This document shows positions 13,723 to 64,000 of a stretch of DNA of 64,000 nt, in pieces (the stretch's first letter is position 1; every line of letters begins with the position of its first letter). The stretch lies in assembly GCF_006345805.1 (NCBI RefSeq), contig NC_042998.1:135842001-135906000 (forward strand). The letters are read 5' to 3'. The notes under the pieces are model-generated. The model saw nothing but the letters and a program-made list of their open reading frames with translations, ran no database searches and was not told where the DNA came from. This DNA is from Octopus sinensis. Taxonomy: Eukaryota. The position numbers were made by a program, and so were the translations under genes.

Positions 13723-15470
13723 TTATATACATATATATATATACATGTATATATACATATGTATATGTATGTATACATGTATATGTATATGTATACATGT
13801 GTGTATACATGTACATGTATGTATACATATGTATGTACATATATATGCGTATGCGTGCGCATGTATGTACATATACATACATATATATATACGTGTGCGT
13901 ATGTGTATGCGTATACATACGTATATGTGTGCGTATACATGTGTGTATACATATACGTATATGTATACATATGTGTACATATACGTATGTATGTGCGTGT
14001 ACATATACGTATATGTATACGTATGCATATGTATGTGTGTATGTATATGCGTATGCGTGTGTGTACATATATATATACGTGTACATATGTATACATGTGT
14101 ATGTACATATGTGTGCATATGTATACGTATATATATATACACATATATATATGTGTGTGTGTGTACGTATGTGTATGTGTACGTATGTGTACATATATGT
14201 GTATGTATGCGTATATATGCGTGTACGTGTGTATACGTATACGTGTATGAGTACATATGTATGTACATATGTGTACATATACGTATACGTATATGTACGT
14301 ATACGTGTATGTGCATATGTGTGCATATATGTATGTACATATGTGCATGTACATATGTGTACATATACATATATGTACATACACGTATATACACATATAC
14401 ATATGTGTGCGTGCGCGTATATGCACGTATACGTATATATACATGCACATATATACATGCATGTGTATACATGTGTATGTATACATATACGTATATGTGT
14501 GTGCATACGTATGTATGCATATGTATGTATGCATGTGTATATATGTACATGTGTATACGTGTGTGTACATGTATGTACATATATATATATATATACGTGT
14601 ATATGCATACATGTGTGTACGTGTATGTATGTGTATGCGTATATGTGTACGTATGTGTGTACATGTGTATGTACGTATATATACATATACATATGTGTAC
14701 ATACATATGTATATGTGTACATGTGTATGTACATATGTATACGTACACGTGTGTGTATATATATACGTGTACGTACGTACATGTATGTATACGTGCGTAT
14801 GTACATATACGTATATATGTATATGCGTATGTATATACACACATATATATGTACACACATGTATATATACATGTATGTACACACGTATATATACATATAT
14901 ATATGCACATATGTATATGCATGTGCATATACATGTACACATACGTATGTACATACATATGTATATACATATATATATACATATGTATGTACGTGTGTAT
15001 GTACATGTGTATGTGCATGTGTATATGTGCATATATATATACGTATATATGTGTACATATGTATATGTGCGTATGTGTGTACATGTGTATATACATATAT
15101 ATGTACATATATACATATGTATATACATGTGTGTATATACGTATGTGTATGTGCATATATGTGTATACATATATATATATGCATATGTGTATGTACATGT
15201 GTGTGTATACATATGTATATATATACATGTATATATATGTACGTGTATGCGTGTGCATATGCATATGTATGTGTGTGTGTACATATGTGTGTATGTGTAT
15301 ACGTGTATGTATATGCGTATGTGTACATATATATGTGCATATATATATGTACATATATATATGCATATATATATGTACGTGTATATATGTGTACATATAT
15401 GTATATATACATATATATATATGTACATATATATGTATGTACATGTATATATATGCATATATATATGTAC

Positions 15471-15501
<31 letters not shown>

Positions 15502-15705
15502 CATATATATATATGTACGTATATATATATACATATATATACGTACATATATATATATACATGTATATATATGTATATATACATATATGTATATATATAC
15601 ATACATGTGTATGTATATATACGTACATATATATATATGTATACATATATGTATGTATATATATGTACATACATACGTATATATACATACATATATATAT
15701 TTATA
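13723..15705. repeat. About 2 kb in-phase purine/pyrimidine-alternating array (TA/CA/TG/CG mix)
   Basis: Directly visible. It is the source of the 650-880 aa artefact ORFs. Confidence 0.95.
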
Positions 15706-15901
15706 TACCTTTAGAACAAGAGAACAAGAAACCATGGTGGTCCTTTGGAGGACACATATATATATATATTACATATATATATATATACATATATATATGT
15801 ACATACATATATATATATACATGTATATATATACATATATATATAGATATATACATACATGTATATATATACATACATACATATATATATGTACATACAT
15901 A

Positions 15902-15942
<41 letters not shown>

Positions 15943-15944
15943 AT

Positions 15945-16622
15945 ACCTTTAGAACAAGAGAACAAGAAACCATGGTGGTCCTTTGGAGGACACTTGTCCT
16001 AAGCCACTTTGACTATTGCTCTGAGTTATGGTCACCATCCAGTGTCAAGTTGATCACAGAGCTCGAGGCGATCCAGCGTAGCTACACGAAGAAGATAGCC
16101 TCTATGCAGAATGTAAGCTACTGGGAAAGACTCAAGAGATTAAAACTATATTCCTTGGAGTGTAGGCGGGAAAGATATGCCATAATATACATCTGGAAGA
16201 TCCTGGAGGGACATGTCCTGAACTTTGGCATTGAGAGTTACACAAATGCCAGAACTGGGCGCCACTGCGTGGTGCCTAGGACTCCAAATTTGCCATCAAG
16301 ATGTAGGACAAGATACTGTGATAGCCTGGGCTTCCGAGGCCCACAGCTCATCAATATCCTCCCGAAGAACCTGAGAGACCTGTATGGGGTGGATGCTGAT
16401 GTCTTTAAAATGGAACTGGATCTCTTCCTGTGAGGTGTCCCAGATGAACCAACTTCACGGCCAGAGGTGCAGATGCGGGCAGCTGCATCGAACTCTCTCA
16501 TGCACCAAATGGCAGTTGCTAAAAAGCTTTTGTGAAGTAAAACCAAGTAGCAACCGAAATGGCGGTGCCCCAGCATGGCCACAGCTTATGAGCTGAAACT
16601 AGAATCAATCAATCAATCAATC
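15945..16622 (+). mobile_element. 5'-truncated CR1/L2-group LINE, copy 2 (a different subfamily)
   Basis: [67 protein letters not shown]. In-frame stop at 16431-16433 and an (ATCA)n tail. Confidence 0.9.
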
Positions 16623-16775
16623 ATATATACATATATATATGTATATATACATGTATATATATATATATATGTATATATACATGTATATATATATATGTAT
16701 ATATACATGTACATATATGCATATATATATATGCATATATATATATGCATATATATATATATGCATATATATATA

Positions 16776-16813
<38 letters not shown>

Positions 16814-16885
16814 TATATATATATGCATATATATATATATATATATGCATATATATATATATATATATGCATATATATATATATA

Positions 16886-16925
<40 letters not shown>

Positions 16926-16977
16926 TATATATATATGCATATATATATATGCATATATATATATGCATATATATATA

Positions 16978-17037
<60 letters not shown>
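16623..17037. repeat. (TA)n array punctuated by TGCA/TACA
   Basis: Directly visible. Confidence 0.95.
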
Positions 17038-17473: not shown

Positions 17474-17865
17474 TCATCATCATCATCATCGTTTAACGTC
17501 TGTTCTCCATGTTAGCATGTGTTGGACGGTTCGACCGGGGATCTGGGAAACCAGAAGGCTGCACCAGGCTCCAGTCTGATCTGGCAGTGTTTCTACTGTT
17601 GGATGCCCTTCCTAATGCCAACCACTCCGTGAGTGTAGTGGGTGCTTTTTACGTGACACCGGCACAGGTGCCAGGCGAGGCTGGCAACGGCCATCATCGG
17701 ATTGGTGCATTTTACATGCCACCAGCACGGAAGCCAGTCAAGGCAGCGCTGGCATCGGCCACGATTCGGATGGTGCTTTTTATGTGCCACCGGCACGGAA
17801 GCCAGTGTAGGCGGCACTGGCATCGGCCACGTTCAGATGGTGCTTTTTACATGCCACCGGCACGT
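17474..17865 (-). mobile_element. RTE-type 3' end (family C) with internal tandem units of about 65 bp
   Basis: The motif GGTGCTTTTTACGTGCCACCGGCAC recurs at about 17641, 17704, 17772 and 17839. (GAT)n tail on the minus strand. Confidence 0.75.
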
Positions 17866-21690: not shown

Positions 21691-22278
21691 ACACACAGAA
21701 AAAAAAAAAAAGAGCAATAACACTGTGCTTGGTTGTATAGCAAAAGTAAATGTGCAAAAAAAAAAACCTCCTCAATAATAATAATGATGATAATAATAAT
21801 CCTTTCTACTACAGGCACAAGTCCTGAAATTTGAGGGATGTGGGGTTAGTCGATCACACCGACCTCAGTATGTTGACTGGTACTAATTTACTGACCCCAA
21901 AACAATGAAAGGTAAAGTTAGCCTTAGCAAAATTTGAACTCAGAACATAGCAATGGGCGAAATACTGCTATGCATTTTGTCCAGTGTGCTAATGATTCTG
22001 CCAGCTCACTACCTTAATAATAATAATAATAATAATAATGATGATGATAATAATAATCCTTTCTACTATAGGCACATGGCCAGTTTCAGGAAAAGGGATT
22101 ATGTCAATTATATCGACCCCAATGTTCAACTGGAACTTATTTTATTGACCTTGAAAGGGTAAAAGGTAAAGTTGACCTCAGCAGAATTTGAACTCAGAAC
22201 GCAAAGACAGATGAAATGCTGCTCAGCATTTTGCCTGGTGTGCTAACGATTCTGCCAGCTTGCCACCTTAATAATAAT

Positions 22279-23297: not shown

Positions 23298-23707
23298 AAA
23301 CGTTGATATGTCTCAAGGACTCCTTAAAAGGTAACTTGGTATCAAATTTTTGACATATAACCTGTTTACCACGTATGTGGAAGCTTATGACCAGTGTCTT
23401 GGCAGAAAGTTATATAATCATTTGGAAAGTAACAATCTATTTCCAAAAGAGCAGAAAGGATGCAGGAAACAAAGTAGAGCAACAAAGGATCACTTATTAG
23501 TTAATAAAATGATAATTAGAAATTGTAGTTGCAGATTGATAGGACTGAATGTAGATTACAAAAAAGCATGTGACATGGTAACACACAGCTGGATAAGTAA
23601 AACAATGAGCATGTTTGGAGTGACAGAAAATATGGAGAAAATAGCTAATGAAAGTGTGAAACAGTGGATTACTGAATTGATTGGAGGAAAATGAAAACTT
23701 GGGAAAG

Positions 23708-23789: not shown

Positions 23790-25300
23790 TCTATCACATA
23801 TGTTGAAGGAAATTATGTAAGAGCTGCTGGGTAAACAACATACATTGTTTTCTGGTTTGCAAGCGACCAACCTTGGAGCAGCCAACATACAATTGACCAT
23901 GAGAAAAGCAAGGTTTAATTAAGTGCAAGCCGGTAGATTTCAAAGACTAACCTTGAGCTTTATCAATAGCCATTGCAAAGCAAAGTCACTCTGGGAATTG
24001 TGTTTTTTTTAACTCAAATGGCATGTTTGTTGGTTTGATTGGAGGCTCATCCAGTGATGATGGTAGCTTCTATCACATTAGGTGATAATGTCTTCACAAT
24101 CAACCTTGTCCCATTGCATAATTTAGGTGGATCTAAATTTCTTAGAAGCAATATTAGGACTCCTACCTTCAGTAAAAGTTTATGTGGAGGAGTTCCAAGT
24201 GGCTCAAGGGAATTAAGGAACTCTGTTGGGTAATGGACAGCTTGATTTTCATCAAGGACTGAATCAACTGATTTGTATTCCTTAATGACTGTTGTAATCT
24301 TATTCATTAATTCATGGTTAATCCTTGCTACTTTCTCATTTTCTGGAGCAAGAATTGCCCTTTCACGCAACTATTTATGTGAATTATAATTATTACTTAA
24401 GTCTGGAAATACCTTGTTCTTCAATTCAGCAGGGAAATTCCCCATGATAGCAATATGAGTCAAACTGATATCATCATTCCCATCAAATGGTTCTTTCCCA
24501 TTTCCTAATTGGAGGAGCCAGGTTGAAAACATTGGTCCCCACTTAATAAAGCTTGCATGTTAGTATTGAAGAATTTCTGTACTTTATTCCATAGGTGTGA
24601 AGAATTAATGCATGCTTTTATTTCATCAGATCTTGTTCCTCTTGGAATGACTGGTAATGTCTGTCTGAAGTCTCCTGATAAAACTAATGTAACTCATCCC
24701 ATAGATTTGTTGTTGCCCCTTATGTCCTTCTCTTATAATATTGCTACCAAAGGAGGTCATTTGGAAAGCAGAATTATAAATTCCTAATGTTTTTCAAGAA
24801 GTGCATGCTCCTTAGTGTGTTTCCCAAAAGCAATGCCTTCAAAGTATCTGGGGGTGTACCAAACAACCATTCCTCCACCACAGCATATAGTGGTGGTTTC
24901 TCTTTCCCATTTCTTTCTTTTAAAAAACTGTGCTCTTTTGACATTGCTCCAGTATCAATTTCTCTGTAGAATAATCATGTTTTGGATCATAGTTGAAAGC
25001 TGATCTTTTCCAAGTCCCCTTAAAAGGTGCAACTCTTTTGTCTAACATATTTAGCCTATCTTGATCAAGATGCTTACATCTTTCCTCTGAGGATTGGCAA
25101 AGTCTTGCAGCAACTGTTTGCTCCTGGCTTTTTCTTTGTCTCATCTCTCCTTGACCTATTGTCCCATTGGCAGCTTGTCTTTGTCTTGCATCCTTTAAAC
25201 GTTTTTCTTTTTCCTTCTTTGACTCTTGGCTCCTGCAGATTACATTTTGTTGACGTAATTGTTCAAACCGTTTTACCCATGCTTCTTGTGACTCATTAGC
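23790..25300 (-). mobile_element. Internally deleted, inactive Helitron (N-terminal region joined to a PIF1-like helicase)
   Basis: LSGDFRQTLPVIPRG, RAILAP, EFLNSLEPLGTPPHKLLLKVG..LLRNLDPPKLCNGTRL, FAMAIDKAQG and FSHGQLYVGCS motifs, with stops and frameshifts. Confidence 0.9.
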
Positions 25301-61700: not shown

Positions 61701-62302
61701 TGACACACTCAAACATGAACAGCTAGACCATTACGGAATCTTAAAATCTAAACACAAGCTATGGTACACATGACTAAACAAATAAAATGATTACAAAGGA
61801 AATGAGGCATGTCAAGTAGACAGAAGGACTATGTTTTATTCTGTGATACATTTATTTATGTAACTTACTCAGAAACTGACTCAAAAATTCACTTTCAACA
61901 AATCTGTGTGTGTGTGTGTGTGTATGTATATGTATATGCACGTGTTTGTGTGCATGCGTGTGTAGCTCTTTTCAAGTGGGTCAAAAATATTTTGCAAGAG
62001 TTTTATCGTTTCTTTTTAAAATAAACAATAAAACATTGAGGTGTTTATGAGTAAGGAAGTAGTGGAAAGTGAGATAAATCTGGAGTACATAAATATGGTG
62101 GGGTGGATTATGGGGTGGAAAAAAAACGTGACAACAATAATGCACAGGAAATGGATCAAAGAGAAAAATAGCAATTATGAAACTTTAAAAGCAATTATTA
62201 AAAGCATAAGGTGCTGGGACGGCTATAAGGGTATGAATGGCTGTGTGGATATGAAAGTCGCTTTGTAACCACATTGTTTTAAGCTCAAACCTAATAGGTG
62301 GC

Positions 62303-62773
62303 TAATGATTTGTAGGTACGCGGTATTTCGTTATGCAACCATGATATACTATAAAGTATATTAAATGCTTTTGTAAGTCAATACCGCAGTAGAAAGCGAT
62401 ATTGACTATAAAAACGTTTAATATACTTTATAGTATACTGTGGTTGTATAATGAAACACTGTGTACCTAAAAGTCATTAGTATTTACATACCAGCTTCCA
62501 GGAATATGTTTAATATGTAAAATTGGTATATCCAATAACTACACCGATATACATAGTGGCTATTTAAGCAATGTGTTCGAGAATGATTAAAGGATTAGAT
62601 GAGTGCTGATGAAGACACCCCCCCCCCCGCGCTCCCAGAAATATGGCATATATGCACCCATTACCCATTTTTCATCTTCCAACTCATTATTTCATCACAC
62701 CTGAAACGTAACAAAAATTAGTGCTGGCTATAATGTCTATAGACTATCTGCAGAGATAAACTTAACAAGTAAT
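62303..62773 (+). mobile_element. 471-bp insertion with a 5' inversion, a decayed hammerhead and a 12-bp TSD, splitting a family-B SINE
   Basis: CTAATAGGTGGC occurs at 62291-62302 and 62774-62785, and the SINE resumes after the second copy. Hairpin at 62302-62480, CTGATGA at 62606 and GAAA at 62638. Confidence 0.8.
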
Positions 62774-62890
62774 CTAATAGGTGGCATTTTGGACGAGTGT
62801 TTTTTATAATAGCTTCAGACTGAACAATGCATTATGAACCAAACTGACAAATGGCAACTGTAGGAGAACCTATCAAACACATGAACACAC

Positions 62891-62929: not shown

Positions 62930-64000
62930 TATTGACTGTCAGTAGAAAGAGTATCCAATACTATATCAGAGGTAAGAATACTTTTATTTAGCCGAATCAG
63001 TCTCCTGCTACTTTGCATTCGCAGACACTACTACTTTGCATTCATAGTGCAAACTAGATAAATGGAAGTCAAAATCACTTTGTAACTTTTGCTAATTAAG
63101 AACAAAATATATGTATGTTAGGAAGGGCATCCAACCACACATAAGGAGGAGGAGGAGGAGGGGAGGGAAGAAGAAGAAGAAGAAGAAGAAGAAGAAGAAG
63201 AAGAAGAAGAAGAAATTTATGAAAACTGATGTGACTCTTCAAAAAGGTAAATAAGCAATAAGAGTGTCTGTCTTCCTTGGGTTCAAAATGGAAAATGAAA
63301 AAATGCAGAAATATAGACATCTAAAATATCAATGAGAATATCCTGCATTCTTTTTTTAGACAAAATGACAATATCAGTTTTTCATAACTGGTTACAAGGG
63401 AAAAGAAAAAAAAGAAAACAAGAAAGGGAACTCAGTCAAACAGTTTTGAGTAAATGTGATGAAATTTGCCTGTCATTTTATTCATTCTTCCAGGGAGTGA
63501 CAAATATATTTGTCCTTACGCATTTTGAGGGCTGAAAGTGCAGTGGTGTCAGAATATTTTCTGAGAATGTGCTCTTTCAAGTGTTCCTCAAAATTACAGC
63601 TATTTGATGTAGAATGTTTGGCAAGTACTATTGAACTACTGCTATTGTGCCTAACGTCAAACCTACACCCACTGGATCTTTTATTTAATTGCTCTGTTGT
63701 GCAACCAATATAAATCAAGTTGTGTTCGATGCATTCCACTGCATACAGCAAATAAGAATCTTTATATGTCCCACCTTCTGTATAAATCTGAACATATGTT
63801 ACAATTTGTGATGGAATTGACTTGACTCATATTGTTGCACAATGAACAGGGCTTACCATTCTTGCAGCTGTTTTTTGGGGTACAGCATTCAGACTCCAAT
63901 GGTAGTTTTCTTGGGGTTAGAGTTAGTGTTTAATAGCTCTAAAATATTTTTATTTGCATCTAAAGGGGTACAATAGGTAGATGAGGAAATATTTGTTTTA
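62930..64000 (-). mobile_element. Penelope-like element 3' part with a GIY-YIG endonuclease remnant; runs off the window edge
   Basis: 63482-63751 reads LLYAVECIEHNLIYIGCTTEQLNKR..VLAKH. Upstream are GKPCSLCNNM (CxxC) and GGTYKDSY, with frameshifts. Confidence 0.8.

Follow-up and report, generated by a model that had tools for sequence, protein, structure and literature searches.

An insertion with an inverted head and a decayed candidate hammerhead in an octopus genome points to an abundant non-coding repeat family

Within a 64,000-nt stretch of Octopus sinensis DNA, referred to here as the window (GC 33%, with microsatellite fields), a dispersed repeat is interrupted by an insert whose first part folds back on itself, raising the question of what kind of element landed there, how its palindrome was made and whether the locus is still active. 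A sequence-only reading had seen in it a solo Penelope-type pseudo-LTR with an inversion. We examined the duplicated target, the copies of the insert in public sequencing contigs, the ribozyme motif and the orthologous loci (features in Table 1).

Table 1. Features of the insert and its target, in positions of the window (TSD, target-site duplication)
Feature	Position	Strand	Remarks
Host SINE (presumed), part before the target	62237..62290	+	alignment with nine window paralogues starts near 62237 and crosses the site
Left TSD, 12 bp	62291..62302	+	exact repeat; shares alignment columns with the right copy
Inverted head	62303..62385	-	reverse copy of unit 62398-62479; begins at the family-wide 3' end
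Inner join	62386..62395	+	2-nt GC microhomology plus the 8-nt 'loop', the first bases of the direct piece; read from family sequence before 62407 and after 62385
Direct piece	62386..62773	+	one unit minus about 18 nt, permuted; closing joints
Right hairpin arm	62396..62479	+	stops at the family-wide end 62479; continues into the tail in other copies
TATA-like TATTTAAG	62561..62568	+	putative; 30 nt upstream of stem I
Broken type I hammerhead	62599..62661	+	motif positions in the window; intact stem II in family contigs
Right TSD, 12 bp	62774..62785	+	exact repeat; up to 4 nt perhaps also the unit's continuation
Host SINE (presumed), part after the target	62786..62875	+	from BLAST against window paralogues

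The target site and the repeat family

The insert (62303-62773, 471 bp) lies between two copies of the 12-mer CTAATAGGTGGC, which agree at 12 of 12 positions (14 of 15 with a leftward extension) and whose chance recurrence we computed as about 3e-5 per kb. When the insert was excised in silico, all nine BLAST matches to other loci in the window spanned the junction ungapped at 61-65% identity, and both TSD copies occupied the same columns in an alignment with six paralogues of the host repeat, so the host repeat was split cleanly at the duplication, much as the sequence-only reading had described it. Its further view that this was a single insertion event with a TSD is supported. We take the host repeat to be a SINE from its resemblance to such elements, and 33 contigs of one public run (X3) diverge from the window upstream of 62237. 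The orthologous contigs differ from the left TSD at 62295 (runs X14 and X15) and 62301 (X15), and the target here is not AT-rich, unlike most flanks of the family. BLAST and nhmmer found no second copy of the insert in the window, neither insert end carries a poly(A) or simple-repeat tail, and ARAGORN, which can miss decayed heads, found no tRNA genes in the window; we rejected the insert as a tRNA-derived SINE for want of a tRNA-like head (with the same caveat about ARAGORN) and of a simple-repeat tail.

The stretch or part of it was contained in 20 of the 24 public runs listed (12 studies, six organisms), and the family was analysed in contigs of four runs aligned at 80% likeness: 2014 from X3, 95 from X7, 2462 from X15 and 1585 from X14. 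The family tables hold the best 40 of 116 letter rows, 12 of 18 indel rows, 12 of 27 between-letter rows, 15 of 236 joints, 24 of 1210 loose ends and 32 of 6640 pieces; the contigs are short and collapse arrays, and none is a complete copy from another locus. Summed depth, which is no copy number, runs from hundreds to about 20,000 over the insert versus 6-15 on the unique flank, and the whole insert is part of one high-copy family. None of the listed runs is recorded as RNA; X7, a run only guessed to be RNA, leaves the unique left flank uncovered, and 0.9 of its aligned contigs continue into other sequence. Family motifs had no match in metagenome, prokaryote and viral collections, as expected of an animal repeat, and a six-frame Pfam search of the insert for a protein remnant gave no relevant match.

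In other copies, the stretch 62770-62777 runs back into 62400-62407. We detected closing joints from 62770 to 62400 with 35 letters between (one X15 contig) and from 62777 to 62407 with 37 letters (one contig each of X15 and X3), and the opposite-strand joint 62385/62768 (one contig each in X3, X7 and X15) is the same closure reached through the left arm. The linker in the closing joints is the sequence found upstream of the right arm in 29-35 contigs per DNA run; closure thus rests on six contigs in all and this shared linker, with arrays themselves not seen. The resulting unit is 406-408 nt in the coordinates of the window copy, or about 410 nt after allowing for its indels, and is non-coding, low in GC and closed head-to-tail within the 150-450-nt range (two joints, six contigs with the opposite-strand equivalent). 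The insert is best read as a nearly complete, permuted monomer of this self-closing unit of about 410 nt, preceded by an inverted head.

The arms of the hairpin proposed by the sequence-only reading were recovered by alignment at 62302-62387 and 62396-62480, around an 8-nt loop, AGTAGAAA, with 14 mismatches and one gap over 86 columns. The 85-bp fold-back has a fold energy of -98.1 kcal/mol on the plus strand (z -19.5; matched by 0 of 200 shuffles), more stable than the -83.4 kcal/mol of the minus strand. From thousands in the arms, depth falls at the palindrome centre (62387) to 8.8 in X3, 48.8 in X15 and 0 in X14 and X7, and contigs linking the right arm to the tail span 62407-62614, 62409-62612 and 62441-62614. 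Because the single linker sequence upstream of the right arm, common to those 29-35 contigs, includes the 'loop', the direct piece starts at 62386 and is joined to the head through a GC microhomology; the 'loop' is the start of the direct copy and no separate element.

The largest class of loose ends in every run falls at 62303 (117, 14, 151 and 126 contigs in X3, X7, X15 and X14), the mirror of 62479. By eye, the loose-end consensus there agrees with the unit's continuation at 15-20 of 29 letters and keeps 0-2 of 10 G/C letters, and in a mixture simulation an agreement of 0.42-0.44 is reproduced when 80-90% of the ends are unrelated AT-rich flanks and the other 10-20% are continuing copies. 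As the mixture consists mostly of unrelated flanks, 62479, within a few nucleotides, is a family-wide end; the right end at 62773 is absent among the best 24 of 1210 loose ends. At least seven joint rows connect the inverted head to the direct part, at about 62480-91, 62560, 62636-58 or 62714-20; some of these rows may come from a single locus, which still gives four or more distinct join points. A head with a fixed start and variable joins was likely built at insertion, the published account for PLEs (Penelope-like elements) as well (PMC3846280, PMC8557442), and an inverted 5' copy running from a fixed 3' end with a variable inner join, as looked for in non-autonomous PLEs, is present in the family.

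The hammerhead motif and known relatives

The TATTTAAG motif and the hammerhead pieces quoted in the sequence-only reading were all found in place: the 5' strand of stem I at 62599-62605, CUGAUGA at 62606-62612, a decayed stem II at 62614-62637, GAAA at 62638-62641 and a palindromic stem III at 62642-62650, with a predicted cut after 62652. The TATTTAAG site shows no variant among the best 40 of 116 letter rows. In the window itself the ribozyme is inconspicuous: the core hammerhead pattern has six matches versus 2.7 expected (six of 100 shuffles reach six), and Rfam gave no match at the gathering score and 20 sub-threshold ones, mostly generic microRNA hairpins and none a hammerhead, so the ribozyme reading rests on family data.

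Rebuilding stem II from other copies, as the sequence-only reading had suggested, succeeded: 35 X15 contigs and 6 X7 contigs (agreement 0.69 and 0.68) carry it intact after 62614, although no intact row occurs among the six listed for each of X3 and X14. In the family, a G-rich and a C-rich strand flank an A-rich loop ahead of GAAA, and by eye we read a 4-bp stem closed by G10.1-C11.1 after one extra A; this consensus was assembled from contig consensus lines and indel tables, with no single intact copy. The palindrome UAUG-N-CAUA forms stem III, with AUA as the cut triplet. Two nucleotides are missing at 62653 or 62655 in many contigs (7+7 in X3, 15+10 in X15, 13+6 in X14), which restores the register of a 7-bp stem I. 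In the window copy the 5' strand of stem II is gone, an additional A stands before GAAA and two additional nucleotides lie beside the cleavage site; the fold of this copy forms no hammerhead. Judged from these sequences, the family has a genuine hammerhead, which is broken in the window copy.

An extra nucleotide after position 9, G10.1-C11.1 and a palindromic stem III are given as marks of PLE hammerheads in part of PMC4209133, and the family hammerhead, including its consensus, shows all four of the marks listed from that part, which upholds the Penelope type proposed for the ribozyme. The likeness extends to CUGAUGA, the single extra nucleotide, the 4-bp stem II, GAAA, the palindromic UAUG-N-CAUA and the AUA cut triplet (same part of PMC4209133). 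Unlike the hammerheads described there, the family motif is read from consensus lines and is a candidate ribozyme.

In the accessible parts of PMC3846280 and PMC8557442, PLE insertions with an inverted pseudo-LTR likewise have an inverted, 5'-truncated head, a fixed 3' end, a TSD of about 10 bp and a partial-tandem unit, and PLE cis sequences alone suffice for movement in trans, a further likeness to the insert family; inverted 5' copies with 8-10-bp TSDs are described there as standard. The 12-bp TSD here fits the range of about 8-15 bp for non-autonomous PLEs, and the family's flanks fit an AT-rich pool. Unlike those insertions, the family has no ORF, and the outer ends of the insert are separated by 294 nt of the unit (or 113 nt in the opposite direction) instead of the usual 30-40-nt tail. 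We rejected the insert as an autonomous PLE: no PLE reverse transcriptase or GIY-YIG ORF occurs in six frames, and the unit closes without room for one.

Animal non-LTR retrozymes, as described in parts of PMC7229834 and bioRxiv 10.64898/2026.07.22.740005, resemble the family in their non-coding, low-GC, closed units of 150-450 nt (350-390 in mussel), type I hammerhead, TSD longer than 4 bp and proposed PLE origin. In the canonical retrozyme hammerhead, stem III has 1-2 bp and loops 1 and 2 make contact, whereas that of the family looks like the PLE variant, with an extra nucleotide 9.1 and a palindromic stem III. Also unlike animal retrozymes, the window copy is broken and shorter than one unit, shuffled sequences fold as well as its direct piece does (z +0.58), and the family is read from contigs. 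The family probably works as a non-autonomous PLE derivative, and it resembles animal retrozymes. Giant squid has 235 hammerhead hits (PMC6962438), and the word 'hammerhead' does not occur in the accessible part of PMC8967140. Among the papers listed on octopus and cephalopod Penelope elements, hammerheads and retrozymes, and on twin priming in Penelope elements, none describes the family, which Repbase, Dfam or the O. vulgaris repeat library may already contain.

How the insert may have been assembled

We consider the family quite probably a non-autonomous hammerhead unit mobilised by Penelope machinery, and give about an even chance to the fuller proposal that the insert is an old copy of this abundant, non-coding unit of about 410 nt, inserted by a PLE-like enzyme that primed both nicks. 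For the insert itself, target-primed reverse transcription by a Penelope enzyme is an inference. Multimeric or circular unit RNA would have been bound in trans by an autonomous Penelope-like protein, whose reverse transcriptase/endonuclease would have made a 12-bp staggered cut and primed cDNA from both nicks. The left nick would have primed at the usual end, 62479, and copied about 83 nt as the inverted head; the right nick would have primed at 62773, some 30 nt further upstream on the template as it repeats, helped by as many as 4 nt of microhomology, to give a copy of 388 nt, after which the two cDNA ends would have joined through GC. A repeating template gives the long cDNA a second copy of the head, hence the palindrome. 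In unit coordinates (62479 = 0, length 407 nt) the head spans -83 to 0 and the long piece extends from -93 to +294 (= -113), which leaves a gap of 28-30 nt on the template (-113 to -83). Such twin priming explains the start at 0, this gap and the right-junction microhomology of up to 4 nt. No autonomous element sharing the unit's sequence was found.

Published work is consistent with parts of this scheme. In vitro, a PLE protein can nick AT-rich DNA and extend each of the two strands (part of PMC11167929), and twin priming leaves a small gap between its two pieces (part of PMC2837659). As in L1 twin priming, described in the same part of PMC2837659, a TSD surrounds two opposed pieces with a small template gap and microhomology at the second primer; unlike L1, the template here repeats, so that the second piece re-copies the first and makes a palindrome, and there is no poly(A).

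The end of the long piece within 10 nt of the head's inner end is unexplained by twin priming alone and is explained by fold-back, the strongest rival, which we regard as rather unlikely. A single primer would have given a 388-nt cDNA from 62773 that folded back through a stem of 2-3 bp closing an 8-nt loop, copied itself and was trimmed at 62479 by the endonuclease. The tight loop with its microhomology favours this, as does the minority letter shared by both arms at 62317/62465; self-priming is moreover the reading of PLE palindromes in part of PMC3846280, and 62773 lies about 160 nt after stem II, to be compared with the Anolis PLE, which initiates at 111-118 nt with a 30-40-nt tail (part of PMC11167929). 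The copy-back would, however, have to stop exactly at 62479, inside the template, and the heads of other copies are joined 80-320 nt from a tight hairpin. Among the 14 arm mismatches (62303-62479), eight can be polarised by family letters (two A>G, two T>C, three C>T and one C>A on the plus strand), and seven of these eight lie in the right arm, which, with small numbers, hints that the arms may not have been identical at the start; the excess may be noise or reflect two distinct template molecules. Six of the 14 look CpG-type, and CpG decay at 62342-62344 was rejected because family letters contradict it. By computation, twin priming and fold-back each leave one coincidence of 5-16%, and we hold the two-primer detail to be little better than even against the self-priming fold-back.

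A circular template would remove that coincidence, and the locus could then be the fossil of reverse transcription once round a circular RNA of about 410 nt, a reading that we hold to be unlikely. The breakpoints 62773, 62386 and 62396-8 all fall within about 30 nt on the closed unit, and the copy spans the ribozyme cut site intact, as if both cDNAs had stalled at the second primer's hybrid on a circle. Against this, the tight hairpin was the reason for choosing this locus, a linear RNA with its end in the same stretch would also serve, and unprocessed RNA is the main substrate of the PLE protein (part of PMC11167929).

A solo pseudo-LTR of an autonomous PLE with a 5' inversion, the identity originally proposed, would account for the PLE-type hammerhead, the TATA-like motif, the inverted head and the TSD, and PLEs make up 6.83% of the O. 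vulgaris genome in 190 consensus families (part of PMC13282606). In other copies, though, the 3' part re-enters the 5' part after 35-37 letters, leaving no room for an ORF, and a coding remnant is absent in six frames. Of the original claim the Penelope-type hammerhead stands; with a unit that closes at about 410 nt, the solo pseudo-LTR is not the best reading, and we consider this origin doubtful. Still less probable is that a LINE (RTE, CR1 or Dong-R4) carried a SINE or retrozyme with a hammerhead to the site through ordinary twin priming. The 12-bp TSD and 5' inversion are LINE marks too (part of PMC2837659), the mobiliser of retrozymes is unproven in the accessible part of PMC7229834, and fragments of LINE reverse transcriptase are present in the window; yet the insert ends have neither a simple-repeat nor a poly(A) tail, there is no tRNA head, the hammerhead has PLE features, and the inverted head recurs from one fixed end.

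The cephalopod lineage is known for heavy A-to-I editing, and every inverted head in the family is potentially a long double-stranded RNA. The stability of the fold, better on the plus strand, could be taken to mean that the hairpin was retained or shaped as an ADAR or Dicer substrate, as had been suggested; we find this suggestion unsupported and the reading highly improbable. G-U-compatible mismatches do occur as described but without significant bias (nine G-U against four A-C, p=0.27), the eight polarised changes show no A>G excess, and across the insert in X3 at least 9 sites have window G for family A against at least 15 with window C for family T. Compensatory changes number 0 among the 14 mismatches, and the divergence looks neutral. 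A separate palindromic MITE landed at the edge of another insert has a negligible chance, despite the TA at each boundary of the 179-bp palindrome, for the palindrome centre is near single-copy and elsewhere the right arm joins the tail directly and follows the unit linker in place of the left arm; this was one of the cases named in advance as fatal to the sequence-only reading, and it fails, and a MITE or foldback DNA transposon was rejected also for lack of an inverted repeat at the right end.

Age, fate and surroundings of the locus

The arms are 16.5% apart (JC 0.186, half of which is 0.093; 95% 0.05-0.16), and on the scale in part of PMC13282606 a JC of 0.09 equals 25 My. If the arms began identical and the Octopus scale applies, the insert would be roughly 14-45 My old. 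Contigs from two other organisms (E and F) run across both junctions, differing by 3.6-6.8%, and represent a filled site. An empty site with a single copy of the target, which the sequence-only reading had hoped to see, did not appear among the best 15 of 236 joints, and the left flank is uncovered in X3. The orthologous contigs have a C run 5 shorter yet the same hammerhead damage, and lesions shared in this way are old. At 62702 an orthologous X15 contig has 16 extra nucleotides and X14 a similar gap total, so that a deletion in the window's lineage is likely. Together, the drift of the arms, the filled site in two other organisms and the broken ribozyme make this copy very likely inert, and the hairpin of this old insertion was likely left over from the insertion process and is not a functional RNA.

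What the locus offers is a lead to a non-coding retroelement family of high abundance with a hammerhead, one that unites retrozyme-sized closed units with Penelope-style inverted heads, features usually described apart. With many copies in several related genomes, mapping of ends and joins could separate fold-back from two-nick priming of PLE inversions and could also test circular RNA as template; the circle reading, if true, would give genomic support to the still hypothetical step in which animal retrozymes use a circRNA template, in an undescribed cephalopod family whose hammerhead is of the PLE type.

Other remnants of mobile elements were detected in the window. A decayed GIY-YIG endonuclease frame lies 700 nt from the insert (63482-63990, minus strand; Pfam PF01541 E 0.0022, below the cut-off; Atlas 0.94-0.95, top matches GIY-YIG), preceded by a Cys-rich stretch in another frame, and the two are likely the remnant of a Neptune-type PLE. 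The frame has no detectable similarity to the unit, and none of 171 candidate homologues among longer proteins passed; it shows that PLE machinery was once present in this genome. A Pif1 helicase 2B domain (24047-24370, minus strand, E 5.6e-16) is presumably a Helitron remnant, and a reverse transcriptase fragment lies at 23335-23694 (RVT_1 E 0.0024, below the cut-off). About 9.5 kb of AT-dinucleotide and related microsatellite (7513-17037) encloses LINE-like coding fragments at 13031-13435, which has no Pfam match, and at about 15700-16430, with one short piece recurring several times. We also observed a near-identical direct repeat, at least as long as listed, at 1139-1225 and 1660-1746 (521 nt apart), and tandem repeats at 17641-17864 (68 nt, 3.4 copies) and 21774-22278 (254 nt, 2 copies).
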